Origin: Paracoccaceae bacterium
GTDB lineage: Bacteria; Pseudomonadota; Alphaproteobacteria; Rhodobacterales; Rhodobacteraceae
Direction: 5' to 3'
DNA length: 64,000 nt
Assembly (NCBI GenBank): GCA_046348855.1
Contig: JAXMDK010000016.1
Location: 36,721 to 100,720, forward strand
The position numbers were made by a program, and so were the translations under genes. The first letter of the stretch is position 1. Each line of letters begins with the position of its first letter. The notes under the pieces were generated by a model that was not told where the DNA came from, did not search any database, and saw only the letters and a program-made list of their open reading frames with translations. Of this stretch, positions 5,883 to 21,296 are shown piece by piece.

Positions 5883-6800
5883 TCAACCGGGCAGGTTGGC
5901 GGTGCCGTCGGGATCGGCGGCCTGATCGACCAGCCAGGCGCGGAAGGCCTGCAGCGGCGGATACCATTCGCCGACCTTGGGCCAGACCAGGAAATAGCTG
6001 CCCTCGGCCAGCGTCGGCCGGCCCCAGGCGGCGACCAGCCGCCCGTCGGCCAGTTCCGACTGGGCCAGGAACTCCGGCAACAGCGCCACCCCCATGCCGT
6101 AGATCGCCGACTGGATCATGGTGGCGAACTGGTCGAACAGCATCCCCGTGGGCGGCCGCGCCTCGACCCCGTGCTGGCGGAACCAGCTGGCCCAGGCGGT
6201 CGGGCGGGTCTCCAGCTGCAGAAGCGGCAGGTCCAGCAGGCTTTCGGGGCCGCCGACCGGATGCGCCTCCAGGAACTGCGGCGCGCAGCAGGCCACCAGC
6301 CGTTCGTCGAACAGTTTCTGGAACCCGGCATTCGGCCAGGTCGCCGCGCCGAAATGGATGGCGGCGTCGAAGCCCTCCTCCTCGAAGTCGAAGGGCCGGA
6401 CCCTTGTGCCCAGGTTGATCGTCACGCCGGGATGGGCGGCCAGGAACCGCGGCAGGCGCGGCGCCAGCCAGCGGGTGCCGAAGGTCGGCAGGATCGCCAG
6501 CGAAAGCGTGCCGCCCCCGGTGTTCGACCGCACCCGCATCGACCCGCGCGAGATCAGGTCCAGCGCCTTGACCACATCGCGGGCATAGGCCATCGCCGCA
6601 TCGGTCGGCACCAGCCGGCGGCCTTCGCGCAGGAACAGCGCCACCCCCAGCTGCGCCTCGAGATTCTGGATCAGCCGGCTGACCGCACCCTGCGTCAGGT
6701 CCAGGTCGCGCGCCGCGGCCAGGGTCGACCCGGTGCGGCAGACCGATTCGAAGGCCTGCAGCAGGCTGACCGAGGGCAGAAGGCGGCGGGCGACGGCCAT
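5883..6800 (-). CDS. LysR-family regulator (GcvA/GcdR-like), divergent from the lysine/glutaryl-CoA operon
   Basis: LTQGAVSR HTH, PTFGTRWLAPRL, substrate-binding domain; divergent from the gcdH operon. Confidence 0.92.
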   Translation of the reverse strand: MAVARRLLPSVSLLQAFESVCRTGSTLAAARDLDLTQGAVSRLIQNLEAQLGVALFLREGRRLVPTDAAMAYARDVVKALDLISRGSMRVRSNTGGGTLSLAILPTFGTRWLAPRLPRFLAAHPGVTINLGTRVRPFDFEEEGFDAAIHFGAATWPNAGFQKLFDERLVACCAPQFLEAHPVGGPESLLDLPLLQLETRPTAWASWFRQHGVEARPPTGMLFDQFATMIQSAIYGMGVALLPEFLAQSELADGRLVAAWGRPTLAEGSYFLVWPKVGEWYPPLQAFRAWLVDQAADPDGTANLPG

Positions 6801-6897
6801 ATATGCGCTCCATACATATAATATCGCCAGAATAGGGTTATTTTCACGGGGAACAATGGCCTAACCGCATAGCCAACCGAATCTCCGGGGGAAGCCC

Positions 6898-8103
6898 ATG
6901 TCCGATCCGTTCCGCCGCGCCGCCCGCATCGCCACTGTCGAGCTGTCGGAAATCCTGCAGGTGTCCGAAGCCGCCGCCGCGATGAAGAAGGCGGGCCACG
7001 ACGTGATCTCGCTCGGCACCGGCGAGCCCGACTTTCCGACGCCGCCCGCCGTCGTCGACGCCGCCCACCGCGCCGCCCAGGCCGGAGAGACCACCTATAC
7101 CGCCACCGCCGGCACCGCCGCGCTGCGCCAGGCGATTGCGGCGGATTGCGAACGGACCAACGGCTACCGGCCCGAACCCGCCGAAATCATCGTCTGCACC
7201 GGCGCCAAGCAGGTGATCTTCAATGCCATGTTCGCCACGCTGGAACCCGGCGACGAGGTCATCGTCGGCGCGCCCTACTGGACCAGCTATCCCGACATCA
7301 TCGGCGTCTGCGGCGGCAAGCCGGTGATCGTGCCGACCAAGGCCGACAGCGGCTTTGCCATCACCGCCGACCAGTTGCGCGCGGCGATCACCCCCCGCAC
7401 CCGCTGGCTCCTGCTCAATTCGCCCGGCAACCCGTCCGGCGCCGTCTATCACCGGGCGCAGCTTGACGCGCTGGCCGAGGTGCTGCGCGACCATCCCCAT
7501 GTCGGCATCATCGCCGACGAGATCTACCAGCACATCTGCTACGTGCCCTTCGCCTCGTTCCGCATGGTCGCCCCCGACCTCGCCGACCGCACGCTGATCG
7601 TGAACGGCGTGTCGAAAAGCTATGCGATGACCGGCTGGCGGATCGGCTGGGGGATCGCGCCCCGGCGGCTGATCGACGCGATGATCGCCGTCCAGGGACA
7701 GATCACCTCGGGCGCCTCGTCGGTCAGCCAGGCGGCGGCACTGGCGGCGCTGACCGGCGACCAGCAGATGCTGGCCGCGCGCAACGACGATTTCCGCGCC
7801 CGCCGCGACATGGTGCGCGACGCGCTGAACGCCACCGGCGTGATTCGCTGCGGGTCGGCCGACGGGGCCTTCTACCTGTTCCCCGACTGCACGCAGACCT
7901 TCGGCAAGACCGCGCCGGACGGAACAAGGATCGAAAAGGATGCCGACTTCTGCGCCGCCCTGCTAAGGTCCGAAGGTGTCGCGCTGGTTCCCGGCCGCGC
8001 CTTCGGCGTGCCCGGCCATTTCCGCCTGTCCTACGCCTATTCGCGCGCCTCGCTGACCGAGGCCTGCAAACGCATCGCCCGTTTCTGTCAATCGCTCGCC
8101 TGA
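6898..8103 (+). CDS. Class I/II aminotransferase, by context a 2-aminoadipate aminotransferase
   Basis: GEPDFPTP, NSPGNPSG, DEIY, GVSKSYAMTGWRIG. Confidence 0.88.
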   Translation: MSDPFRRAARIATVELSEILQVSEAAAAMKKAGHDVISLGTGEPDFPTPPAVVDAAHRAAQAGETTYTATAGTAALRQAIAADCERTNGYRPEPAEIIVCTGAKQVIFNAMFATLEPGDEVIVGAPYWTSYPDIIGVCGGKPVIVPTKADSGFAITADQLRAAITPRTRWLLLNSPGNPSGAVYHRAQLDALAEVLRDHPHVGIIADEIYQHICYVPFASFRMVAPDLADRTLIVNGVSKSYAMTGWRIGWGIAPRRLIDAMIAVQGQITSGASSVSQAAALAALTGDQQMLAARNDDFRARRDMVRDALNATGVIRCGSADGAFYLFPDCTQTFGKTAPDGTRIEKDADFCAALLRSEGVALVPGRAFGVPGHFRLSYAYSRASLTEACKRIARFCQSLA

Positions 8104-8112
8104 GGAACCATC

Positions 8113-9321
8113 ATGGCCCTGAAACCGAAAGACGCCCCCGACCTGTCCCGCTTCGACTGGGAAGATGCCTTCCGCCTGAACGACCAGCTGACCGAGGACG
8201 AGCGCATGATGCGCGACGCCGCCCGCGCCTATGCGGCCGAAAAGCTCCAGCCGCGCGTCACCGAGGCCTACCGCGACGAAAAGACCGATCCGGCGATCTT
8301 CCGCGAAATGGGCGCGATGGGCCTTCTCGGCGTCACCGTCCCCGAGGAATACGGCGGGCTGGGCGCCAGCTACGTCGCCTATGGCCTGGTGGCGCGCGAG
8401 GTCGAGCGGGTCGACAGCGGCTACCGCTCGATGATGTCGGTGCAGTCGTCGCTGGTCATGTATCCGATCTATGCCTACGGCTCGGAAGCGCAGCGCAAGA
8501 AATACCTGCCGAAACTCGCCTCGGGCGAATTCATCGGCTGCTTCGGCCTGACCGAACCCGACGCCGGTTCCGACCCCGCCGGCATGAAGACCCGCGCCAC
8601 GAAAACCGCGAGCGGCTATGTGCTGAACGGCTCGAAGATGTGGATCTCGAACGCGCCGATCGCCGACGTGTTCGTGGTCTGGGCCAAGTCCGAGGCGCAT
8701 GGCGGCAAGATCCGCGGCTTCGTGCTGGAAAAGGGTATGAAGGGCCTCTCGGCACCGAAGATCGGCGGCAAGCTTTCCTTGCGCGCCTCGATCACCGGCG
8801 AGATCGTGATGAAGGACGTGGAAGTTGGCGAGGACGCGCTTCTGCCGAACGTCGAGGGTCTGAAAGGCCCGTTCGGCTGCCTCAACCGCGCCCGCTACGG
8901 CATTGCCTGGGGGGTGATGGGCGCCGCCGAGGCCTGCTTCCACGCCGCCCGCCAGTATGGGCTCGACCGCAAGCAGTTCAACAAGCCAATCGCCCAGACC
9001 CAGATCTTCCAGCTGAAGCTCGCCAACATGCTGACCGAGATTTCGCTGGGGCTTCAGGCCTCGCTCCGCGTCGGCCGGCTGATGGACGAAGCCAACGCCG
9101 CGCCCGAGATGATCTCGATCATCAAGCGCAACAACTGCGGCAAGGCGCTGGAAATCGCCCGCCACGCCCGCGACATGCACGGCGGCAACGGCATCCAGGA
9201 AGATTTCCAGATCATGCGCCACATGGTCAACCTCGAAACGGTCAACACCTACGAGGGCACCCATGACGTCCATGCCCTGATCCTGGGCCGCGCCATCACC
9301 GGGCTTCAGGCCTTCTTCTGA
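8113..9321 (+). CDS. gcdH: Glutaryl-CoA dehydrogenase
   Basis: [56 protein letters not shown]. Confidence 0.96.
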
Positions 9322-9333
9322 TTTTCCCTTGAA

Positions 9334-9391
9334 AAATACTCCCGCCGGAGGCGCCTGGCCTTGCCGGCGGATGCCTCCGGCGGGAGTATTT
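9334..9391. repeat. 19-bp perfect inverted repeat (REP-like doublet)
   Basis: AAATACTCCCGCCGGAGGC (9334-9352) and GCCTCCGGCGGGAGTATTT (9373-9391). Confidence 0.8.
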
Positions 9392-9425
9392 GCGCAAGGA
9401 AAAGCCGCAACAGAGACGAAAAGAC

Positions 9426-11615
9426 ATGGATCGCGCCGATATCGTCCACGACAACTTCCTGCGCCGGGTGGCGGCGCGCGACTTTCCGGCCGGCACCGCG
9501 CCGGCGGGCCCGCTGACGGCCACCGACGCGGTCGCGGCCTACCGCGCCGGGTGTCTCACCCGCGCGCTCGACCGGCAGAGCCGGGCGATGCAGAAGGCCG
9601 GCCAGGGGTTCTATACCATCGGCTCCTCGGGGCACGAAGGTCTGGCGGCGGTGGCGCTGGCGCTCCGGCCAACCGACATGGCCTTCCTCCACTACCGCGA
9701 TGCCGCCTTCCAGATCGCCCGGGCCGGTCAGGTCGACGGCCAATCGATCGCCTGGGACATGCTCCTCTCCTTCGCTGCCTCGTCCGAAGACCCGATCTCG
9801 GGCGGGCGGCACAAGGTGCTGGGCTCGAAGGCGCTGAACATCCCGCCGCAGACCTCGACCATCGCCAGCCACCTGCCGAAGGCGGTGGGGGCGGCCTATG
9901 CCATCGGCGCGGCGCGCCGCCACCGGCCCGAACATCAGGAACTGCCCGACGATTCCATCGTCTATTGTTCGTTCGGCGACGCTTCGGCCAACCATGCGAC
10001 CGCCCAGACCGCCTTCAACACCGCCGGCTGGACCTCCTGGCAGTCGATCCCGCTGCCCTTGCTCTTCGTGTGCGAGGACAACGGCATCGGCATTTCCACC
10101 AAGACGCCGAAAGGCTGGATCGCCGCCGGGTTCCAGAACCGGCCGGGGCTGAAATATTTCCATTGCGACGGGCTTGATCTCTACGACACGTTCCGGGTGG
10201 CGCAAGAAGCCGCCGACTATGTGCGGACCCGCCGCAAGCCCGCCTTCCTGCATGTCAAGACCATCCGCCTTTACGGCCATGCCGGCGCCGACGTGCCGAC
10301 CACCTACCTTTCGCGCGAGGAGGTCGAGGCCGAGGAGGCGCACGATCCCTTGCTGCATGCGGTGCGGCTTCTCGACCAGGCCGGGGCGCTCTCGCCCGAT
10401 CAGGCGCTGGCGATCTATCAGGAAACCAACGCCCGCGTTCAGCGCGTCGCGGCCGAGGCGGTGACCCGCCCGCGGCTGAAGACGGCGGCCGAGGTCATGG
10501 CCAGCCTGATCCCGCCGAAACGCGCCTGCAAGCCCACCAACGGGCCGACCGCCGAAGCTCGCGCCACCGCCTTCGGCGCCGACATGAAGCAGATGGACGA
10601 GCCGCAGATCATGTCGCGGCTCATCAACTGGGCGTTGACCGACCTGATGCTGGCGCATGGCGAGATCGTCATGATGGGCGAGGATGTCGGCCGCAAGGGC
10701 GGCGTCTATGGCGTCACGCAGAAACTGTTCGCCCGTTTCGGACAGGACCGGATGATCGACACGCTGCTCGACGAACAGTCGATCCTCGGCCTTGCCATCG
10801 GCATGGCGCAGAACGGCTTCGTGCCGATGCCGGAAATCCAGTTCCTCGCCTATCTCCACAATGCCGAGGACCAGATCCGGGGCGAGGCGGCGACGCTGTC
10901 GTTCTTCTCGAACGGCCAGTACACCAACCCGATGGTGCTCAGGATCGCCGGCCTCGGCTATCAGAAGGGCTTCGGCGGCCATTTCCACAACGACAATTCG
11001 GTCGCCGTCCTGCGCGACATTCCCGGCGTCATCCTCGCGGTGCCGTCGAACGGCGCCGACGCCGCGAAGATGCTGCGCGAATGCGTGCGTCTGGCGCGGG
11101 AAGAGCAGCGGGTCGTGGTGTTCCTCGAACCGATCGCGCTTTACCCGATGCGCGACCTTCACGGCGAAAAGGACGGCGGCTGGATGTGCCGCTATCCCGA
11201 TCCGTCCGAGGTGATCCCCTTGGGCGAGGTCGGCGTGCATGGCGCGGGCGAGGATATCGCCATCGTCACCTTCGGCAACGGTTACTACCTGTCGCGCCAG
11301 GCCGAGGCGCGGCTGGCGGCCGGGGGCGTGAAGGCGCGCGTCATCGACATGCGCTGGCTGTCGCCCCTGCCGGCCGAGGCGCTGGTCACGGCGGTCGGGG
11401 GCGCGAAGCGTATCCTGGTCGTCGATGAAACCCGCCGGTCGGGCGGGGTGGCCGAAGCCTTGATGGCGCTCTTCGCCGAACGGACGAAGGTGCCGCTGGC
11501 CCGCCTGACCGCCGAGGACAGCTTCATCGCCACCGGCCCGGCCTATGCCGCCACCATGCCCTCGGCCGACAGTGTCTATTCCGCGGCAAAAGCCCTGATC
11601 GGGGGTGGGAAATGA
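9426..11615 (+). CDS. Fused 2-oxoacid dehydrogenase E1 alpha/beta (ThDP-dependent), candidate 2-oxoadipate decarboxylating component
   Basis: Alpha half: GHEG, HYRD, ThDP motif GDA...EDNGIGIS, RLYGH. Beta half: GEDVG, DEQSILG, EIQF, GGHFH. Start taken at MDRADIV. Confidence 0.88.
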   Translation: MDRADIVHDNFLRRVAARDFPAGTAPAGPLTATDAVAAYRAGCLTRALDRQSRAMQKAGQGFYTIGSSGHEGLAAVALALRPTDMAFLHYRDAAFQIARAGQVDGQSIAWDMLLSFAASSEDPISGGRHKVLGSKALNIPPQTSTIASHLPKAVGAAYAIGAARRHRPEHQELPDDSIVYCSFGDASANHATAQTAFNTAGWTSWQSIPLPLLFVCEDNGIGISTKTPKGWIAAGFQNRPGLKYFHCDGLDLYDTFRVAQEAADYVRTRRKPAFLHVKTIRLYGHAGADVPTTYLSREEVEAEEAHDPLLHAVRLLDQAGALSPDQALAIYQETNARVQRVAAEAVTRPRLKTAAEVMASLIPPKRACKPTNGPTAEARATAFGADMKQMDEPQIMSRLINWALTDLMLAHGEIVMMGEDVGRKGGVYGVTQKLFARFGQDRMIDTLLDEQSILGLAIGMAQNGFVPMPEIQFLAYLHNAEDQIRGEAATLSFFSNGQYTNPMVLRIAGLGYQKGFGGHFHNDNSVAVLRDIPGVILAVPSNGADAAKMLRECVRLAREEQRVVVFLEPIALYPMRDLHGEKDGGWMCRYPDPSEVIPLGEVGVHGAGEDIAIVTFGNGYYLSRQAEARLAAGGVKARVIDMRWLSPLPAEALVTAVGGAKRILVVDETRRSGGVAEALMALFAERTKVPLARLTAEDSFIATGPAYAATMPSADSVYSAAKALIGGGK

Positions 11616-12646
11616 CCCGCAAGACCGCCGTCGTCATCTGCCCTGGCCGGGGCACCTACACCAAGGCCGAGCTTGGCTATCTGGGCCGCCATTTCACCGA
11701 CAAGGCGCTCCTGGCCAGCTTCGACGCCACCCGCCGCGATCTCGGGCAGGACACGCTGTCGGCGCTGGACGGGGCGGCCAGCTATTCGGTAGCCCGCCAC
11801 ACCCGCGGCGACAATGCCAGCGGGCTGATCTATGCCTGCACGCTCGGCGACTTCCGCGCCATCGACGCGGGCAGGATCGACGTGGTCGCCGTCACCGGCA
11901 ATTCGATGGGCTGGTATTCGACGCTGGCCTGCGGCGGGGCACTGACCGCCGAAGGCGGGTTCGAGGTGGTCAACACGATGGGCACCCTGATGCAGGAAGC
12001 CCTGATCGGCGGCCAGATCATCTATCCGTTCCTGGGCGAGGACTGGCGGCCCGACCCGGCCAAGAAGGCCGGGCTGCTGGCGCTGGCGGCCGAGATCGGC
12101 GCCCGGCCCGGCCATGTGCTGGCCCTGTCCATCGACCTTGGCGGCATGCTGGTGCTGGCCGGAAACGACGCGGGGCTCAAGGCGTTCGAAACCTCGGTTC
12201 CGCCGGTTCAGGGCCGGTTCCCGATGCGGCTGGCCAACCATGCCGGCTTCCATTCGGCGCTGCAGGCGCCGGTCGCCGAACGCGGCCGCGCCCGGCTTTC
12301 GCCTTCGCTCTTCGGTCAGCCAAAGCTCCCCATGATCGACGGGCGCGGGGTCATCTGGTGGCCGGGGGCGACCGACATCCACCGGCTCTGGGATTATACC
12401 CTCGGCCACCAGGTGACCGAACCCTACGACTTCACCGCCGCCATCCGCATCGCCGCCCGCGAATTCGCCCCCGATCTCTTCATCATCACCGGCCCCGGTA
12501 CCACGCTCGGGGGCGCGGTTGCCCAGTCGCTGATCCTGGCGAACTGGCGTAACATGGGCGCGAAGGCCGATTTCCAGTCACTCCAGCAAACCGCGCCGCT
12601 TCTTGCCGCCATGGGCATGGAAGACCAGCGCGCCATCGTCACCTGA
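11612..12646 (+). CDS. FabD/ACP S-malonyltransferase-like acyltransferase (atypical)
   Basis: CPGRG (cf. FPGQG), GNSMG nucleophile motif (cf. GHSLG), AGFHS catalytic His, GPG; ATGA overlap with E1. Confidence 0.85.
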   Translation: MTRKTAVVICPGRGTYTKAELGYLGRHFTDKALLASFDATRRDLGQDTLSALDGAASYSVARHTRGDNASGLIYACTLGDFRAIDAGRIDVVAVTGNSMGWYSTLACGGALTAEGGFEVVNTMGTLMQEALIGGQIIYPFLGEDWRPDPAKKAGLLALAAEIGARPGHVLALSIDLGGMLVLAGNDAGLKAFETSVPPVQGRFPMRLANHAGFHSALQAPVAERGRARLSPSLFGQPKLPMIDGRGVIWWPGATDIHRLWDYTLGHQVTEPYDFTAAIRIAAREFAPDLFIITGPGTTLGGAVAQSLILANWRNMGAKADFQSLQQTAPLLAAMGMEDQRAIVT

Positions 12647-12656
12647 GGAGGTTTCC

Positions 12657-14156
12657 ATGACCCACGACGACATCCTGAAGGCCGCGGGCCTCACCAAGAC
12701 CGACCTGACCGGCGGCACGCTGGTCGTGCGCTCGCCCATCGACGGCGCCGAACTGGCCCGGCTGCATGAAACCGCCCCGGCCGACATGACCAAGGTCATC
12801 GCCCGGTCGCAGGCGGCGTTCAAGGCCTGGCGCGAAGTGCCGGCCCCGCGCCGGGGCGAACTGGTGCGGCTCCTGGGCGAGGAACTGCGCGCCGCCAAGG
12901 CGGAACTCGGCGCGCTGGTGACGCTCGAGGTCGGCAAGATCACCTCCGAAGGTCTCGGCGAAGTGCAGGAGATGATCGACATCTGCGATTTCGCCGTCGG
13001 CCTGTCGCGGCAGATCTACGGGCTGACCATCGCCTCGGAACGGCCCGGCCACCGGATGATGGAAACCTGGCATCCGCTTGGCCCCTGCGCGATCATCACC
13101 GCCTTCAACTTCCCGGTGGCGGTCTGGTCGTGGAACGCGGCGCTGGCGCTGGTCTGCGGCGACCCGGTGATCTGGAAACCGTCGGAAAAGACCCCGCTGA
13201 CCGCCATCGCCACCCAGAAGATCATGGACCGCGCCCTGAAACGCTTCGGCACCGACGCGCCCGAAGGCCTGTGCCAGCTGGTCATCGGCGGCCCGGCTAT
13301 CGGCGAGGCGCTGGTCGGCTCGAAGGACGTGCCGATCGTGTCGGCCACCGGCTCGACCCGCATGGGCGGGATCGTCGGGCCGAAGGTCTCGGCCCGCTGG
13401 GGCCGGCCGATCCTGGAACTGGGCGGCAACAATGCGATGATCGTCGCGCCCTCGGCCGACATGGACATGGCGGTGCGCGCCATCGTCTTTTCGGCGGTGG
13501 GCACCGCCGGCCAGCGTTGCACCTCGCTCCGCCGGCTGATCGCCCACAACTCGATCAAGGACGAGCTGGTGGCGAAACTGTCCAAGGCCTATGCCAGCCT
13601 GCCGGTCGGCGACCCGCGCAAGGGCACGACGCTGGTCGGCCCGCTGATCGACGCCGCCGCGAAGGACAAGATGCAGGCGATGCTGGGCCGCGCGACGGCC
13701 GAAGGCGGCAAGGTCCACGGCGGCAAGGTCGTCACCGACGGCGTGCCGGCCGGCAACTACGTCAGCCCTGCCATCGTCGAGATGCCCGGCCAGACCGAAA
13801 CGGTGCGCGAGGAAACCTTCGCCCCGATCCTCTATGTCCTCGGCTATGACACGCTGGACGAGGCCATCGCGCTCCAGAACGACGTGCCGCAGGGCCTGTC
13901 GTCCTGCATCTTCACCCTGAACATGCGCGAGGCCGAAACCTTCCTGTCGGCTTCGGGCTCGGACTGCGGCATCGCCAACGTCAACATCGGCCCCTCGGGC
14001 GCCGAGATCGGCGGGGCCTTCGGCGGCGAAAAGGAAACCGGCGGCGGCCGCGAATCGGGCTCGGACGCCTGGAAGGGCTACATGCGGCGGCAGACCAACA
14101 CCCTGAACTATTCGGCGAAACTGCCGCTGGCGCAGGGCGTTAAGTTCGACATCTGA
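12657..14156 (+). CDS. amaB: L-piperideine-6-carboxylate / aminoadipate-semialdehyde dehydrogenase (ALDH7 family)
   Basis: EGLGEVQEMIDICDFAVGLSRQ, ELGGNNA, GTAGQRCT, GAEIGGAFGGEKETGGGRESGSD; GAGGAG RBS. Confidence 0.9.
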   Translation: MTHDDILKAAGLTKTDLTGGTLVVRSPIDGAELARLHETAPADMTKVIARSQAAFKAWREVPAPRRGELVRLLGEELRAAKAELGALVTLEVGKITSEGLGEVQEMIDICDFAVGLSRQIYGLTIASERPGHRMMETWHPLGPCAIITAFNFPVAVWSWNAALALVCGDPVIWKPSEKTPLTAIATQKIMDRALKRFGTDAPEGLCQLVIGGPAIGEALVGSKDVPIVSATGSTRMGGIVGPKVSARWGRPILELGGNNAMIVAPSADMDMAVRAIVFSAVGTAGQRCTSLRRLIAHNSIKDELVAKLSKAYASLPVGDPRKGTTLVGPLIDAAAKDKMQAMLGRATAEGGKVHGGKVVTDGVPAGNYVSPAIVEMPGQTETVREETFAPILYVLGYDTLDEAIALQNDVPQGLSSCIFTLNMREAETFLSASGSDCGIANVNIGPSGAEIGGAFGGEKETGGGRESGSDAWKGYMRRQTNTLNYSAKLPLAQGVKFDI

Positions 14157-14181
14157 CATCGCCGTCAATCACCCTGTTTGG

Positions 14182-14209
14182 AAAGGCCCGCCATATTGGC
14201 GGGCCTTTT
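14182..14209 (+). terminator. Intrinsic terminator after the aldehyde dehydrogenase
   Basis: AAAGGCCCGCCA-TAT-TGGCGGGCCTTTT. Confidence 0.8.
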
Positions 14210-14336
14210 CGTCATTATGTGTATTAATTCATCAATTATGGCTGAAATGACCGAAGCAATCGCCAGCCGGACACAGCAGATTGCGCACCGAAGCGGCCCG
14301 CCATGCGCGGCCCCGACAAGAAGAAAAGGATAGATC

Positions 14337-15416
14337 ATGTCGTTCAGGAAAGTGGCCGTCCTCGGCCTGGGCAAAGTCGGCCATCTGGCCGCGGAACTTC
14401 TGGCGGAATCGGGCTTCGAGGTCACCGGCATCGACGCGCGCGACATCAAGGCGCCCTTCGCCACCCGCAAGGTCGACCTGAAGGATACCGCCGCCCTGGC
14501 CGACGTGCTGAAGGGGCAGGAGGCGATCCTGTCCTGCCTGCCCTACCACCTGAACATCGGCGTCTCGACCGTCGCCCACGGCCTTGGCCTGCACTATTTC
14601 GACCTGACCGAGGACGTGCCCACCACCAAACACATCCGCGAGCTTGCCAAGACCTCCAAGGGCATCATGGCGCCGCAGTGCGGCCTGGCCCCCGGCTTCG
14701 TCGGCATCGTCGGCGCCCACCTGGCCGACCAGTTCGACAAGGTCCGCTCGATCCGCCTGCGCGTCGGCGCGCTGCCGCAGAACCCCACCGGCCTTCTCGG
14801 CTATGCCTTCAACTGGTCGCCCGAAGGCGTCGTCAACGAATATCTGAACGACTGCGAAGTGATCGAGGAAGGCGTCCTGAAATCGGTCTCGGCGATGGAA
14901 TGGCTGGAAACCATCTACATCGACGGGATGCAGCTTGAAGCCTTCACCACCTCGGGCGGGCTCGGTACCATGTGCGAAACCTACGCCGACAAGATCGAGA
15001 ATCTCGACTACAAGACCATGCGCTACCCTGGCCATGTCAAGCTGATGAACTTCTTCTTCCACGAGCTTCTGATGCGCGAAAACCGGGCCGAGGCCGGCCG
15101 CATCCTGACCAACGCCAAGCCGCCGGTCGACGAGGATGTGGTCTATGTCCATGTCGCCGCCGAAGGCACCCAGAACGGCCAGATGCGCCGCAAGGAATTC
15201 GTGCGCTCCTACTATCCGATCGAGATCGGCGGCAAGCACCGCACCGCCATCGCCTGGACCACCTCGGCCTCGGTCGTCGCGGTGATCGAGATGGTGAACG
15301 AAGGCAAGCTGCCGCAGAAGGGCTTCCTCAAGCAGGAGGAAATCCCGCTGGAACCCTACCTGAAGACCCGGACGGGGAACTATTACAACGTCGGCCACAG
15401 AAGCCGGCACGCTTGA
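14337..15416 (+). CDS. Saccharopine dehydrogenase family, probable L-lysine 6-dehydrogenase
   Basis: GLGKVG, YFDLTEDV, PQCGLAPG, WSPEGVVNEY, FTTSGGLGT, YKTMRYPGH. Confidence 0.82.
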   Translation: MSFRKVAVLGLGKVGHLAAELLAESGFEVTGIDARDIKAPFATRKVDLKDTAALADVLKGQEAILSCLPYHLNIGVSTVAHGLGLHYFDLTEDVPTTKHIRELAKTSKGIMAPQCGLAPGFVGIVGAHLADQFDKVRSIRLRVGALPQNPTGLLGYAFNWSPEGVVNEYLNDCEVIEEGVLKSVSAMEWLETIYIDGMQLEAFTTSGGLGTMCETYADKIENLDYKTMRYPGHVKLMNFFFHELLMRENRAEAGRILTNAKPPVDEDVVYVHVAAEGTQNGQMRRKEFVRSYYPIEIGGKHRTAIAWTTSASVVAVIEMVNEGKLPQKGFLKQEEIPLEPYLKTRTGNYYNVGHRSRHA

Positions 15417-15436
15417 CCAGTGAGCGGGTTGATCGG

Positions 15437-15466
15437 GGGGCGGAGCGATCCGCCCCTTTCCTTTTT
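15437..15466 (+). terminator. Intrinsic terminator
   Basis: GGGGCGGA-GCGA-TCCGCCCC followed by a T-rich tract. Confidence 0.75.
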
Positions 15467-15595: not shown

Positions 15596-16201
15596 ATGCC
15601 GCCAAACAAGTCCATTCGTTTCCTGATCTTTTCCCTCCTGATGCTGGCCGCCACCCAGGCGCAGGCGCATATCGGCAATGGCGTCGCCGGCGGGTTCTGG
15701 AGCGGCTTCTTCCACCCGCTGTTCGGGCTCGACCATATCGTCGCCATGGTCGGCGTCGGCCTGTGGGGCGCGTTCCTCGGGGCGCCGGCCATCTGGCTGT
15801 TGCCGGTGGTCTTTCCGCTGGTGATGTCGTTCGGGGGGATGCTGGGGATCATGGGCGTGCCCATGCCCGGCGGCGAGACCGGCATCGAGACCGGCATCGC
15901 ACTGTCGGGGATCGTGCTCGGGGCGGCGGTCCTGTTCGGCATCCGCGCGCCCAACTGGGTCGCGGCGGTCATCGTCGGCCTGTTCGCCATCTGTCACGGC
16001 TATGCCCACGGCGCCGAAATGCCGGGCGCGGCCAATGCCTTTTCGTTCGCGCTGGGTTTCGTCATCGCCACCGGCATGCTGCACCTGTGCGGCATCGCGC
16101 TGGGGTTCCTCACGCTCCTGCCCAAGGGGCGCTACGTGGTCAGCAGCCTCGGTGGGGTGATCTGCGCCATCGGCGGCGCCTTCCTGTTCGGTTACCTATG
16201 A
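15596..16201 (+). CDS. HupE/UreJ family Ni/Co permease
   Basis: Signal peptide ending AQA-H, GFFHPLFGLDH, HGYAHGAEMP, GF...TGMLH; AGGAGG RBS. Confidence 0.92.
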   Translation: MPPNKSIRFLIFSLLMLAATQAQAHIGNGVAGGFWSGFFHPLFGLDHIVAMVGVGLWGAFLGAPAIWLLPVVFPLVMSFGGMLGIMGVPMPGGETGIETGIALSGIVLGAAVLFGIRAPNWVAAVIVGLFAICHGYAHGAEMPGAANAFSFALGFVIATGMLHLCGIALGFLTLLPKGRYVVSSLGGVICAIGGAFLFGYL

Positions 16202-18529: not shown

Positions 18530-19018
18530 TCACCTCACCCCCTCCCGCTCCGCCTTCACCCGCTTCAGATATTCGATCCGCTCCCGCCGCCTGGCGCCGT
18601 CGGTCGCCGCCCGTTCCGCCGCTTCCTGCGCCGCCATCTCCTGCTGGATCAGGTCGAAGACCTCCCGCCTGAGGCTCCTCTCCTCCTCCTCGGGGGTCGG
18701 GCGGTAGCCGACCATCTCGGGGCCGGAGGCGAGGCCCGACAGCCGGGTCAGCATGAAGGCGCGCAGCACGTTGTTCATCCGCGTCAGATACCCCGGCCCC
18801 ATGGCGCGGAAGAAGCTCAGGATGTCCTCGTCGAGCCTCAAGGTCAGCTTGCGCTTCGGCGCCACGGCGGGGGCGCGCAGCATCTCGAACCAGGCGCGGG
18901 GCAGGCGGCGGCTGTCGTTCAGCCCCCAGCGCAGGTCGGCCTCCAGATCGCGCAGCGTGCAGGCCAGCCGGTGGTAGGCGATGGCCTTGTCGCGTCCGGC
19001 CTTGGTCAAATTGGTCAT
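18530..19018 (-). CDS. BrnA antitoxin family (DUF4415-like) protein
   Basis: KRKLTLRLDEDILSFFRAMGPGYLTRMNNVLR ribbon-helix-helix signature; AGGAGG upstream of ATG 19018. Confidence 0.8.
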   Translation of the reverse strand: MTNLTKAGRDKAIAYHRLACTLRDLEADLRWGLNDSRRLPRAWFEMLRAPAVAPKRKLTLRLDEDILSFFRAMGPGYLTRMNNVLRAFMLTRLSGLASGPEMVGYRPTPEEEERSLRREVFDLIQQEMAAQEAAERAATDGARRRERIEYLKRVKAEREGVR

Positions 19019-19181
19019 CGCGGCCCTCCTGCCTGTCGCGGACAGGATCACCGGGCGGGGGAAAGGCCGGGTAAAGGGACCGCGCGGCCTGTCGGGACGG
19101 AGGCGGGACGCGGACGGGACGGAAAGGGGACGGATTGCGCCCGCCGCTTCCAACAGGTCTTGGCAGGTGGGTCGGCATTTA

Positions 19182-19197
19182 TTATACATTCGTATAA
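19182..19197. promoter_or_regulatory. Palindromic operator candidate
   Basis: TTATAC-ATTC-GTATAA in an AT-rich patch 23 bp before the flavoenzyme ATG. Confidence 0.55.
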
Positions 19198-19220
19198 CAA
19201 ACCCTGCAGGAGCCCCGACC

Positions 19221-21296
19221 ATGCGCGACCCCCGCTACGACATCCTGTTCGAACCCGTCCGCATCGGTCCGCTGACCACCAAAAACCGCTTCTGGCAGGT
19301 GCCGCATTGCTCGGGCATGGGCTACCGCTATCCCAATGCCGAGGCGCGGATGCGGGGGATCAAGGCCGAGGGCGGCTGGGGGGTGATCTCGACCCAGGAA
19401 GCCGAGATCCATCCGACCTCGGACATCTCGCCGGCGAACGAGGCAAGGCTTTGGAATGGCGACGATATTCCGGCCTTGCGGCTGATGACCGACGCGGTCC
19501 ACGAACATGGCGCGCTGGCGGCGATCCAGCTGGTGCACAACGGCCTTCACACTGCCAACCGCTTCAGCCGGATGATCCCGCTGGCCCCGTCGCCGGCGCT
19601 TTATGACGGCAACGACCCGGTGCAGGCGCGGGCGATGGACAAGACCGACATCGCCGCCATGCGCCGCTGGTACGTGCAGGCGGCGCGGCGGGCGCGCGAG
19701 GCGGGGTTCGACGTGATCTATGTCTATGCCGGCCACGACATGAGCGTGCTGCAGCATTTCCTGTCCCGCCGCCACAACCACCGGACCGACGAATATGGCG
19801 GCAGCTTCGAAAACCGCCTGCGGCTGTTCCGCGAGGTGATCGGCGACGTGCGCGACGCGATCGGCGACCGCGCGGCGCTGGCGGTGCGGCTGGCGGTCGA
19901 CGAGCTGATGGGACCGGAAGGTATCACCTTCGACAGTGAAGGCCGCGATATCATCGCTGCGCTCGCCGAAGAGCCGGACGTGTGGGACGTGAACCTGTCG
20001 AACTGGTCGAACGACAGCCAGACCTCGCGCTTTTCCGACGAGGGTTTTCAGGAGCCGTACACCGCCTTCGTAAAGTCTGTGACGACGAAACCCGTGGTCG
20101 GCGTCGGCCGCTATACCAGCCCCGACAGCATGGTCCGGGTGGTCCGCAAGGGCATACTCGACTTCATCGGCGCGGCCCGACCGTCGATCGCCGACCCTTT
20201 CCTGCCCCGCAAGATCGAGGAAGGCCGGATCGACGACATCCGCGAATGCATCGGCTGCAACATCTGCACCTCGGGCGACAATACCTGCGTGCCGATGCGC
20301 TGCACCCAGAACCCGACGGTGGGCGAGGAATGGCGTCGCGGTTGGCATCCCGAACGGATCGCGCCGGCGGCCTCGCCCGAAGCCGCGCTGATCGTCGGTG
20401 GCGGGCCGGCGGGGCTCGAGGCGGCGCGGGCATTGGCCCAGCGCGGGGTCGAGGTGACGCTGGCCGAGGCCGGGACCGAATGGGGCGGCCGGGTCAGCCG
20501 CGAAGCCCGGTTGCCGGGACTGGCGGCCTGGGGGCGGGTGCGCGACTGGCGGCTGGGGCAACTGAAGAACCTGCCGAACGCGCAGATGTATCTGCAAAGC
20601 CCGCTCTCCGCCGACGACATCCTTGCCTATGGCATCGCCCATGTGGCGCTGGCCACCGGCGGGCGCTGGCGCGCCGACGGGGTCGGGCGCACCCACCGCC
20701 GGCCGCTGCATTTCATCGCCGAGGGCGCGGTGGTGACGCCGGACGATATGATGGACCGCGGGGCGGCGGCGGTCGCGGACCGGGGGCCGGTCGTGATCTT
20801 CGACGACGACTGGTTCTACATGGGCAGCCTGATGGCCGAGGTGGCGGCCCGCGCCGGGCGCGAGGTGACGCTGGTGACCTCCGACGTGATGGTCGGTTCG
20901 TTTTCGCAGAATACGCTGGAACAGATCCGCATCCAGAAGCAGCTTCTGGCGTTGGGGGTGCGGCTGCTGCCCAACCAGGCGCTGGCCGGGCGCGGATCGG
21001 ACTGGCTGGATCTGGCCTGCACCTATTCCGGCACCGCCCGGCGGATCGATTGCGGGGTGCTGGTCCCGGTGACGGCGCGGCTGCCGGTCGCGACGCTGTG
21101 GGACGAGCTGAAGGCGCGCGAATCCGAATGGGCCGATGCCGGGCTGAAAAGCGTGACGCGGATCGGCGATTGCCTGGCACCGGGCACGATTGCCGCCGCC
21201 AACCATTCGGGCCACCTTTATGCGCGAACCTATGGCGAGGTGCCGGACCCCGACGCCACCCCCTTCCGGCGCGAGGATCTGGCGCGGATCTACTGA
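19221..21296 (+). CDS. Trimethylamine/dimethylamine/histamine dehydrogenase-like flavoenzyme (OYE barrel, 4Fe-4S, nucleotide-binding domain)
   Basis: MRDPRYDILFEP, QVPHC (covalent FMN Cys), YVYAGH, CIGCNIC...CTQN, GGGPAGLE. Confidence 0.88.
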   Translation: MRDPRYDILFEPVRIGPLTTKNRFWQVPHCSGMGYRYPNAEARMRGIKAEGGWGVISTQEAEIHPTSDISPANEARLWNGDDIPALRLMTDAVHEHGALAAIQLVHNGLHTANRFSRMIPLAPSPALYDGNDPVQARAMDKTDIAAMRRWYVQAARRAREAGFDVIYVYAGHDMSVLQHFLSRRHNHRTDEYGGSFENRLRLFREVIGDVRDAIGDRAALAVRLAVDELMGPEGITFDSEGRDIIAALAEEPDVWDVNLSNWSNDSQTSRFSDEGFQEPYTAFVKSVTTKPVVGVGRYTSPDSMVRVVRKGILDFIGAARPSIADPFLPRKIEEGRIDDIRECIGCNICTSGDNTCVPMRCTQNPTVGEEWRRGWHPERIAPAASPEAALIVGGGPAGLEAARALAQRGVEVTLAEAGTEWGGRVSREARLPGLAAWGRVRDWRLGQLKNLPNAQMYLQSPLSADDILAYGIAHVALATGGRWRADGVGRTHRRPLHFIAEGAVVTPDDMMDRGAAAVADRGPVVIFDDDWFYMGSLMAEVAARAGREVTLVTSDVMVGSFSQNTLEQIRIQKQLLALGVRLLPNQALAGRGSDWLDLACTYSGTARRIDCGVLVPVTARLPVATLWDELKARESEWADAGLKSVTRIGDCLAPGTIAAANHSGHLYARTYGEVPDPDATPFRREDLARIY

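Follow-up and report, generated by a model that had tools for sequence, protein, structure and literature searches.

Introduction

In animals, 2-oxoadipate is converted to glutaryl-CoA by a dehydrogenase complex in which the E1a component DHTKD1 acts with a shared E2o component, DLST, and the E3 component DLD (PMC9367764, PMC8146983), and in mammals, where the 2-oxoadipate E1 shares DLST with OGDH, glutaryl-lipoyl adducts persist and inactivate OGDH unless they are removed by ABHD11 (PMC12643935). In the actinobacterial OdhA/KGD system, an E1 with a private transferase relies on the lipoyl groups of E2p (PMC10415282). Here we describe a bacterial gene pair that may accomplish the same conversion of 2-oxoadipate with a different set of parts. 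It lies at positions 9426-12646 of a stretch of 64,000 nucleotides (the window) from contig JAXMDK010000016.1 (C16; positions 36,721 to 100,720, forward strand) of assembly GCA_046348855.1, the 88.5% complete genome of a Paracoccaceae bacterium from activated sludge, and encodes a fused E1 alpha/beta enzyme dependent on thiamin diphosphate (ThDP), here called E1ab, and a divergent FabD-fold Ser-His acyltransferase, here called the FabD-like protein. We tentatively propose, with a little less than even confidence, that the two form a dedicated two-protein complex which turns 2-oxoadipate into glutaryl-CoA in lysine catabolism without an E2 of its own.

The pair resembles each of these systems in part. 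With DHTKD1 it shares the step catalysed and a dedicated E1 that has neither E2 nor E3 of its own and would borrow both; DHTKD1, however, is an E1 of the SucA-like, homodimeric kind, relies on the DLST core for acyl transfer and has no FabD-like subunit, and only those E1ab orthologues that lack a FabD-like partner would fit the comparison directly. The likeness to OdhA/KGD lies in its logic of a private acyltransferase, no lipoyl domain, lipoyl-lysine supplied in trans and a shared E3, which is the logic proposed here. The OdhA transferase is a CAT-fold E2o domain fused to a SucA-type E1o, whereas here it is a separate, translationally coupled FabD-fold chain that accompanies a fused heterotetramer-type alpha/beta E1 with 2-oxoadipate as its probable substrate, and the OdhA system is demonstrated whereas we infer this one; with a transferase that is not homologous to E2o and chains that are not fused, the pair is an analogue of OdhA/KGD and not a member. 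ABHD11 is a Ser-His enzyme that strips lipoyl arms of glutaryl groups in a system whose 2-oxoadipate E1 shares its E2, and it shows that glutaryl trapping on borrowed lipoate is a real problem that needs a dedicated enzyme, but it is a free-standing hydrolase of the alpha/beta-hydrolase fold that does not use CoA, whereas the protein described here has the FabD fold, is predicted to be bound to E1, and is likelier to transfer to CoA. The canonical E1/E2/E3 complexes have an E2 of their own, made up of one or more lipoyl domains, a peripheral-subunit-binding domain and a core of the CAT fold and usually encoded in the same operon, and the operon described here encodes no such protein.

To our knowledge, every textbook 2-oxoacid dehydrogenase has an E2 core of the CAT fold at its centre, and pathway databases leave the bacterial conversion of 2-oxoadipate to glutaryl-CoA to 'OGDH promiscuity'. 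A full-text search covering part of the literature found no publication on the E1ab/FabD-like pair, in agreement with an earlier note on this DNA, which knew of no characterisation of the architecture. The step is absent from the GapMind carbon-source paper and its supplements, the Phaeobacter lysine paper assigns no gene to it, and the BioZ paper has Agrobacterium 2-oxoadipate feeding glutaryl-CoA-dependent biotin synthesis, but via glutarate and CaiB. New here are the complex model, the partnerless orthologues, the interface covariation, a paralogous E1ab clade, and the ABHD11 and OdhA analogies.

A single-chain E1 coupled to a FabD-fold acyltransferase

The operon encodes a lysine 6-dehydrogenase-like enzyme (lysDH), AmaB, an aminotransferase and glutaryl-CoA dehydrogenase (GcdH), and the sole step of the pathway left unassigned is 2-oxoadipate to glutaryl-CoA. 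The earlier note had singled out this step, and the assignments of gcdH and amaB described below support its view of the context. It had also described a single-chain E1 with intact motifs, joined by ATGA to a FabD-fold gene and set between gcdH and an aldehyde dehydrogenase gene, and both the coordinates and the gene content hold up. The E1ab gene (9426..11615, plus strand) encodes 729 aa with three Pfam domains in one chain, E1_dh at residues 41-351, Transket_pyr at 398-571 and Transketolase_C at 600-716, and its start (MDRA...) agrees with the orthologue consensus. Its stop codon overlaps the ATG of the FabD-like gene (P0001; 11612..12646, plus strand; 344 aa) as ATGA.

The catalytic apparatus of E1ab is conserved throughout: the ThDP motif GDA...EDNG at 184-220, the loop residue His285, counterpart in the alignment of the catalytic His in human BCKDH E1alpha, and the E1beta-type residues Glu419/Glu450 and His519/521 are all invariant in 28 orthologues. 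The closest solved relatives are the alpha and beta chains of heterotetramer-type PDH and BCKDH E1, and E1ab is by these comparisons an ordinary heterotetramer (alpha2beta2)-type E1 in which alpha and beta have been fused into a single chain. Its context makes it a probable 2-oxoadipate-decarboxylating E1. Public records name E1ab '2-oxoisovalerate dehydrogenase E1', 'thiamine pyrophosphate-dependent enzyme' or 'MFS transporter', and the FabD-like protein 'ACP S-malonyltransferase'. The label 'MFS transporter', which is carried by the NCBI records for P0274, P0308, P0317, P0325, P0342, P0350, P0362 and P0376, is evidently an annotation error that is spreading through the records of metagenome-assembled genomes.

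The FabD-like protein gives no Pfam match even at E = 10 (PF00698 included), scores 35.8 bits against TIGR00128 (cut-off 260.9) and fails all curated FabD models; solved FabD chains match its sequence only at ~1e-8 (3hjv, E 2e-8), i.e. the family is a separate one. Its AlphaFold model (pLDDT 97.4) superposes on E. coli FabD 1mla with TM 0.75/0.84 and E 2e-18, and the family extends to 151 representative clusters at E<1e-30, of 1.8 billion, and to at least 586 genomic loci. With FabD and with MdcH, a FabD-type enzyme that serves a catabolic multi-enzyme complex, it shares the fold, the nucleophilic Ser elbow, the catalytic His and the equivalent of FabD Gln267, and their ping-pong chemistry from thioester to Ser to thiol offers a template for its own. 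It differs in having GNSMG in place of GHSxG, a C-terminal extension of ~35 residues, an E1 and not an acyl carrier protein (ACP) as its partner, and two substitutions in the acyl pocket: FabD Gln11 (PGQG) is replaced by Arg13 (PGRG), which is near-invariant across 39 family members, and Arg117 (LRG), which binds the malonyl carboxylate, is replaced in this protein by Met123 (TMG) when aligned with the genome's own FabD. Ser98 of GNSMG and His214 are invariant in the same 39 members, down to 32% identity. Because the dyad is invariant and these two pocket residues are exchanged, the enzyme seems to be catalytically active, with an acyl pocket that has been rebuilt, and the Ser-His acyltransferase of the earlier note thus stands, its dyad kept and its acyl pocket remodelled. 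Arg13 is a candidate binder of the more distant carboxylate of a C5 diacid, and the protein would be a glutaryl transferase bound to E1ab. Two motifs, DGRG (243-246) and EFAPD (284-288), are invariant in the family and absent from FabD.

Two simpler identities for the FabD-like protein were set aside: the housekeeping FabD, of which a canonical copy is encoded on contig C12, and a dead scaffold, given the invariance of Ser98 and His214. No fab or ACP genes were found among its examined neighbours, and the operon is catabolic. The most remote relative (L085:393-3762; 28% identical) is followed by an open reading frame (ORF) of 80 aa, which is an ACP-like size, and by asparagine synthase; E1ab is not seen in its 428 bases of upstream DNA, and it probably belongs to a different subfamily.

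Conservation of the pair

The earlier note had suggested a survey for E1ab, FabD-like and gcdH genes occurring together, and in related loci the pairing is conserved. Of 92 loci with a family member, 90 have an E1ab gene that ends directly upstream of it, the two genes mostly overlapping or abutting, and the two exceptions have just 35 and 428 bases of upstream DNA; this pairing is far beyond chance. The genes gcdH, amaB and lysDH, an aminotransferase gene and a LysR gene recur around the pair in many combinations, with gcdH the most closely linked, and a divergent upstream LysR gene is present in most related loci. The pair is kept across orders and in a second proteobacterial class, where the FabD-like proteins are 36-49% identical and the unit is reduced to LysR / gcdH-E1ab-FabD-like, the LysR gene again being divergent. 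In Pseudomonas, the slot occupied by the pair is presumably held by the glutarate CoA-transferase gene gcdG, and the presence of a minimal gcdH-E1ab-FabD-like unit in that slot is the strongest contextual argument for glutaryl-CoA as the product. Metagenome contigs carrying remote members of the family are too short to give context beyond an upstream E1ab.

Two loci assigned to the gammaproteobacterium Sedimenticola hydrogenitrophicus (L024 and L034) carry an E1ab/FabD-like/amaB block that is 76-83% identical to the Paracoccaceae block, which points to a recent transfer or to contamination. The E1ab gene of L034 is split by a frameshift close to codon 320.

Predicted complex and partnerless orthologues

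The complex was modelled with one E1ab chain (residues 74-729) and the FabD-like protein, each with its own alignment. The runs scored 0.85/0.85/0.84, compared with 0.00 for the best of three controls, agreed in at least 97% of contacts and gave a partner pLDDT of at least 92. The 0.85 mark is reached by 58/80 solved complexes and by 2/110 mismatched pairs, counts that are only a rough guide here because user-made alignments were fed to the model. No solved complex of an E1 with FabD is known to us, which makes it unlikely that the model reproduced a memorised structure. The predicted interface joins E1ab 101-110, 121 and 322-347 to FabD-like residues 5, 92, 245-247, 251-252, 276-287, 311 and 313; it takes in the DGRG and EFAPD motifs of the FabD-like protein and, on the E1ab side, a loop (101-110) that is longer than in solved E1alpha chains.

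A search with E1ab covered 400 genomes from the phylum and 400 from the class, and 20 carry a lysine-clade orthologue. The FabD-like gene adjoins E1ab in 14 of these and was not detected in six (~30%), in three of which (L104, L106 and L120) E1ab keeps its place after gcdH. When five whole genomes were searched with a profile, namely four of the partnerless six and G135, which carries an E1ab of the x-clade, no FabD-like protein emerged, only housekeeping FabD at 52-77 bits. The partnerless E1abs are scattered among partnered genes on the tree, a quick one with some long branches, and this scatter suggests that the FabD-like gene has been lost repeatedly. The simplest view of the partnerless E1abs is that they would team up with a resident E2 as DHTKD1 does.

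The existence of partnerless genes provides an independent test of the modelled interface, and the E1ab residues with the lowest predicted error prove to be conserved only where the partner gene is present. Position 340, which makes the best-determined contacts, is Arg in 80/82 partnered sequences, in 0/6 partnerless ones and in 0/6 paralogues; likewise R337 is kept in 78/82 partnered versus 1/6 partnerless sequences, G105 in 81/82 versus 1/6, and an aromatic residue at position 110 in 79/82 versus 2/6. The partnerless gene nearest to the partnered alphaproteobacterial clade (72% identical) carries R337D, R340E and W110R. Model and covariation together support direct binding of E1ab and the FabD-like protein, and the earlier note had suggested such a structure prediction of the complex.

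Fused E1ab paralogues form a separate long-branched clade (L108-L113, from G135, G043, G310, G241, G361 and G151) with 48-51% identity. The FabD-like partner is absent from it, and its members lie by genes for a GNAT acetyltransferase and an NADPH-dependent FMN reductase, sometimes with asparagine synthase, GST and acyl-CoA dehydrogenase.

E2, E3 and lipoyl carriers

Whole-genome family scans identify only two E2 cores, on contigs C28 (adjoining SucA) and C12 (adjoining PDH E1), and they place the lipoyl/biotinyl domains, GcvH and all Pyr_redox_dim (E3-type) matches on contigs other than C16, so that the absence of E2, lipoyl domain and E3 from the window, as reported in the earlier note, is sustained. 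Candidate lipoyl carriers encoded in the genome are SucB, PdhC, the lipoyl domain of PdhB and GcvH, and an E3 is present, as are several family III CoA-transferases. An alternative known 2-oxoadipate-consuming enzyme is HglS (PF07063), which was not found in this 88.5% complete genome. A tblastn search of 109 related loci (1.48 Mb) with the CoA-transferase III, SucB, PdhC and the PdhB lipoyl domain of the source genome found no E2, lipoyl domain or family III CoA-transferase, although a very divergent carrier would escape such queries.

Proposed mechanism and alternatives

An E1 requires an acceptor for two electrons. No such acceptor is encoded in the conserved unit, and the catalytic residues of E1ab are of the lipoamide-dependent type, so a lipoyl arm provided in trans is the economical inference, with OdhA/KGD as its demonstrated precedent; FabD chemistry runs from thioester to Ser to thiol, and a FabD-type enzyme bound to E1 could thus unload such an arm productively onto CoA. 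In the sequence of events that we propose, ThDP-bound E1ab would decarboxylate 2-oxoadipate and reductively glutarylate a lipoyl-lysine arm on loan from one of the resident lipoyl proteins, with SucB, PdhC, the PdhB lipoyl domain and GcvH as candidates. The FabD-like protein, docked on the alpha half of E1ab, would then accept the glutaryl group of S-glutaryl-dihydrolipoyl on Ser98, His214 serving as base, and hand it on to CoA; the housekeeping E3 would re-oxidise the arm, and GcdH would convert glutaryl-CoA to crotonyl-CoA. Such an add-on might free E1ab from the acyl specificity of a borrowed E2 core and prevent glutaryl from being trapped on shared lipoyl arms, and lineages without it would revert to the resident E2 core. 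The identity of the substrate and of the lipoyl carrier, the way in which transfer runs and CoA as acceptor are all putative in this scheme.

Several observations weigh against this proposal. E1ab is kept without the FabD-like gene in the six of 20 sampled genomes noted above, three times adjoining gcdH, and the idea of the earlier note that the acyltransferase takes the place of the E2 catalytic core does not survive as an obligatory replacement: the module is not a strict substitute for E2, and the acyltransferase is an optional dedicated subunit. The E2 core of a resident complex, and not the FabD-like protein, may do the transfer in all cases. E2 cores were counted to see whether partnerless genomes hold an extra E2, and the counts are alike at 2-5 in partnered and partnerless genomes and are not informative. 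The covariation counts include many close relatives, so their weight rests on the roughly six independent partnerless lineages. The model contains a single E1ab chain without residues 1-73, whereas a real E1 is a dimer, and both the contact between E1ab and a lipoyl domain and the binding of CoA by the FabD-like protein are presumed in the proposal. The system is described as a 2-oxoacid dehydrogenase with a non-homologous, optional acyltransferase subunit, its catalysis being presumptive.

The alternative that survives best, though we consider it unlikely, is that E1ab follows the pattern of DHTKD1, a resident E2 (SucB being the likeliest) lending both arm and core, and that the FabD-like protein is a glutaryl-lipoyl thioesterase, an ABHD11-like 'arm cleaner' that protects the complex of the tricarboxylic acid cycle. 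The partnerless E1abs that adjoin gcdH manage without a partner, as this would have it; the Ser-His enzyme ABHD11 has just this role where a 2-oxoadipate E1 shares its E2 (PMC12643935), FabD-fold acyl hydrolases exist (PksD, 8aw0, is among the fold matches), and the several family III CoA-transferases of the genome could re-activate the glutarate released. Yet hydrolysis would waste the thioester, and the pair occupies the position of a supplier beside gcdH in minimal three-gene operons that lack a CoA-transferase, none having been found by tblastn in the 109 loci. Enzymes of the FabD family are, moreover, overwhelmingly thiol-to-thiol transferases, and tight, translationally coupled 1:1 pairing with a dedicated interface is more in keeping with a catalytic subunit in stoichiometric amount than with a repair enzyme.

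It is less probable still that the pair has another substrate or another job, for example a different 2-oxo-dicarboxylate or the loading of an acyl group onto a biosynthetic carrier, with the lysine operons as a side branch. Sequence does not reveal substrate specificity, the pair stands alone with unrelated flanks in 13/80 loci, and the remote FabD-like relative at 28% identity adjoins the 80-aa ORF and asparagine synthase; against this, most loci, in two classes, link the pair to gcdH and/or amaB, lysDH and the aminotransferase gene, the lysine-clade pair has no ACP or biosynthetic gene beside it, and the pathway would otherwise be without a 2-oxoadipate step, HglS not having been found. Very improbable, finally, is a lipoate-free complex in which the acyl group, oxidised by some other acceptor, passes to CoA directly or via Ser98 of the bound FabD-like protein, since the absence of lipoyl domain, E2 and E3 within ~8 kb in all 109 loci, the predicted binding of the transferase directly to E1ab (model and covariation) and the hint of other redox partners in the NADPH-dependent FMN reductase gene beside the paralogous clade are set against a conserved unit with no candidate oxidant (flavin domain, ferredoxin or Fe-S protein), an E1ab whose catalytic residues are those of ordinary heterotetramer-type E1s, among them the loop His that serves to acylate lipoamide reductively, lipoylated E2s in all carrier genomes examined, and partnerless E1abs that must rely on some generic partner.

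Returning to the proposal of an E1-bound glutaryl transferase, its widest form would make the pair a third architecture, in which a single-chain E1 and a FabD-fold acyltransferase, joined as a binary complex, replace the E2 core with a non-homologous protein, parasitise the lipoyl arms of other complexes, supply the bacterial conversion of 2-oxoadipate to glutaryl-CoA that has long lacked assigned genes, and also solve, at the site of synthesis, the glutaryl-lipoyl trapping for which mammals have ABHD11; we hold this somewhat more doubtful than the proposal as first stated. If a FabD-fold enzyme on E1 does perform the transfer, it would be the first non-homologous replacement of the CAT-fold E2 core, and genes would be assigned to a step of bacterial lysine, and possibly tryptophan or pipecolate, catabolism. 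A widespread mis-annotation of E1ab and the FabD-like protein would be corrected, metabolic engineers would gain a compact two-gene route from 2-oxoadipate to glutaryl-CoA, and partnered and partnerless lineages would constitute a natural experiment on how lipoyl arms can be shared without poisoning central metabolism.

Operon layout and neighbouring sequences

The region 5883-15458 is one catabolic unit, which consists of a divergent LysR gene, a series of plus-strand genes and a terminator-like hairpin. The LysR-family regulator of the operon (5883..6800, minus strand) has the Pfam domains HTH_1 and LysR_substrate. A class I/II aminotransferase (6898..8103, plus strand; Pfam Aminotran_1_2, E 3e-77) has as its top NCBIfam match an aspartate transaminase model, below that model's cut-off, and by its context is probably a 2-aminoadipate:2-oxoglutarate transaminase. 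The gcdH gene (8113..9321, plus strand) encodes three ACAD domains, and its product matches glutaryl-CoA dehydrogenases of known structure in the PDB at E 1e-166 to 1e-208, those of Burkholderia and human at E 1e-166 to 1e-182; judged by these solved relatives, it is a genuine glutaryl-CoA dehydrogenase.

Between gcdH and E1ab, the spacer (9322-9425) folds as RNA with -54.3 kcal/mol (z = -5.66; 0/200 shuffles as stable) and contains a long hairpin (9334..9391, plus strand) with a perfect stem of ~20 bp that is not followed by a T-run; it may be an attenuator or an element of mRNA processing or stability. Downstream of the pair lies amaB (12657..14156, plus strand), an L-piperideine-6-carboxylate (aminoadipate semialdehyde) dehydrogenase gene whose product scores 813.7 bits against NF050084 (cut-off 730). 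It is followed by a gene for a saccharopine-dehydrogenase-family enzyme (14337..15416, plus strand; Pfam Sacchrp_dh_C and Sacchrp_dh_NADP), which has no NCBIfam model matches and whose top solved relative is 3abi (PH1688; E 1e-18). We take 3abi to be the Pyrococcus lysine 6-dehydrogenase, and with the context this makes the gene a probable lysDH. The operon ends at a terminator-like hairpin (15435..15458, plus strand), identified in a consensus scan as a 10-pair stem followed by the T-run TCCTTTTTCC.

Directly after the operon is a gene for a HupE/UreJ-family membrane protein (15638-16201), and farther downstream an ORF with a BrnA antitoxin domain (18530-19222, minus strand), both named from Pfam matches only. 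DNA near-identical to window positions 9300-12700 is present in the metagenomes of nine studies, which sampled activated sludge, wastewater, biofilm and soil, and this makes the organism a recurrent wastewater Paracoccaceae lineage. In one sludge metatranscriptome, near-identical contigs cover parts of E1ab, amaB and lysDH, and the FabD-like gene is left uncovered; that library may contain DNA, and its contigs indicate neither transcription nor the absence of transcription.

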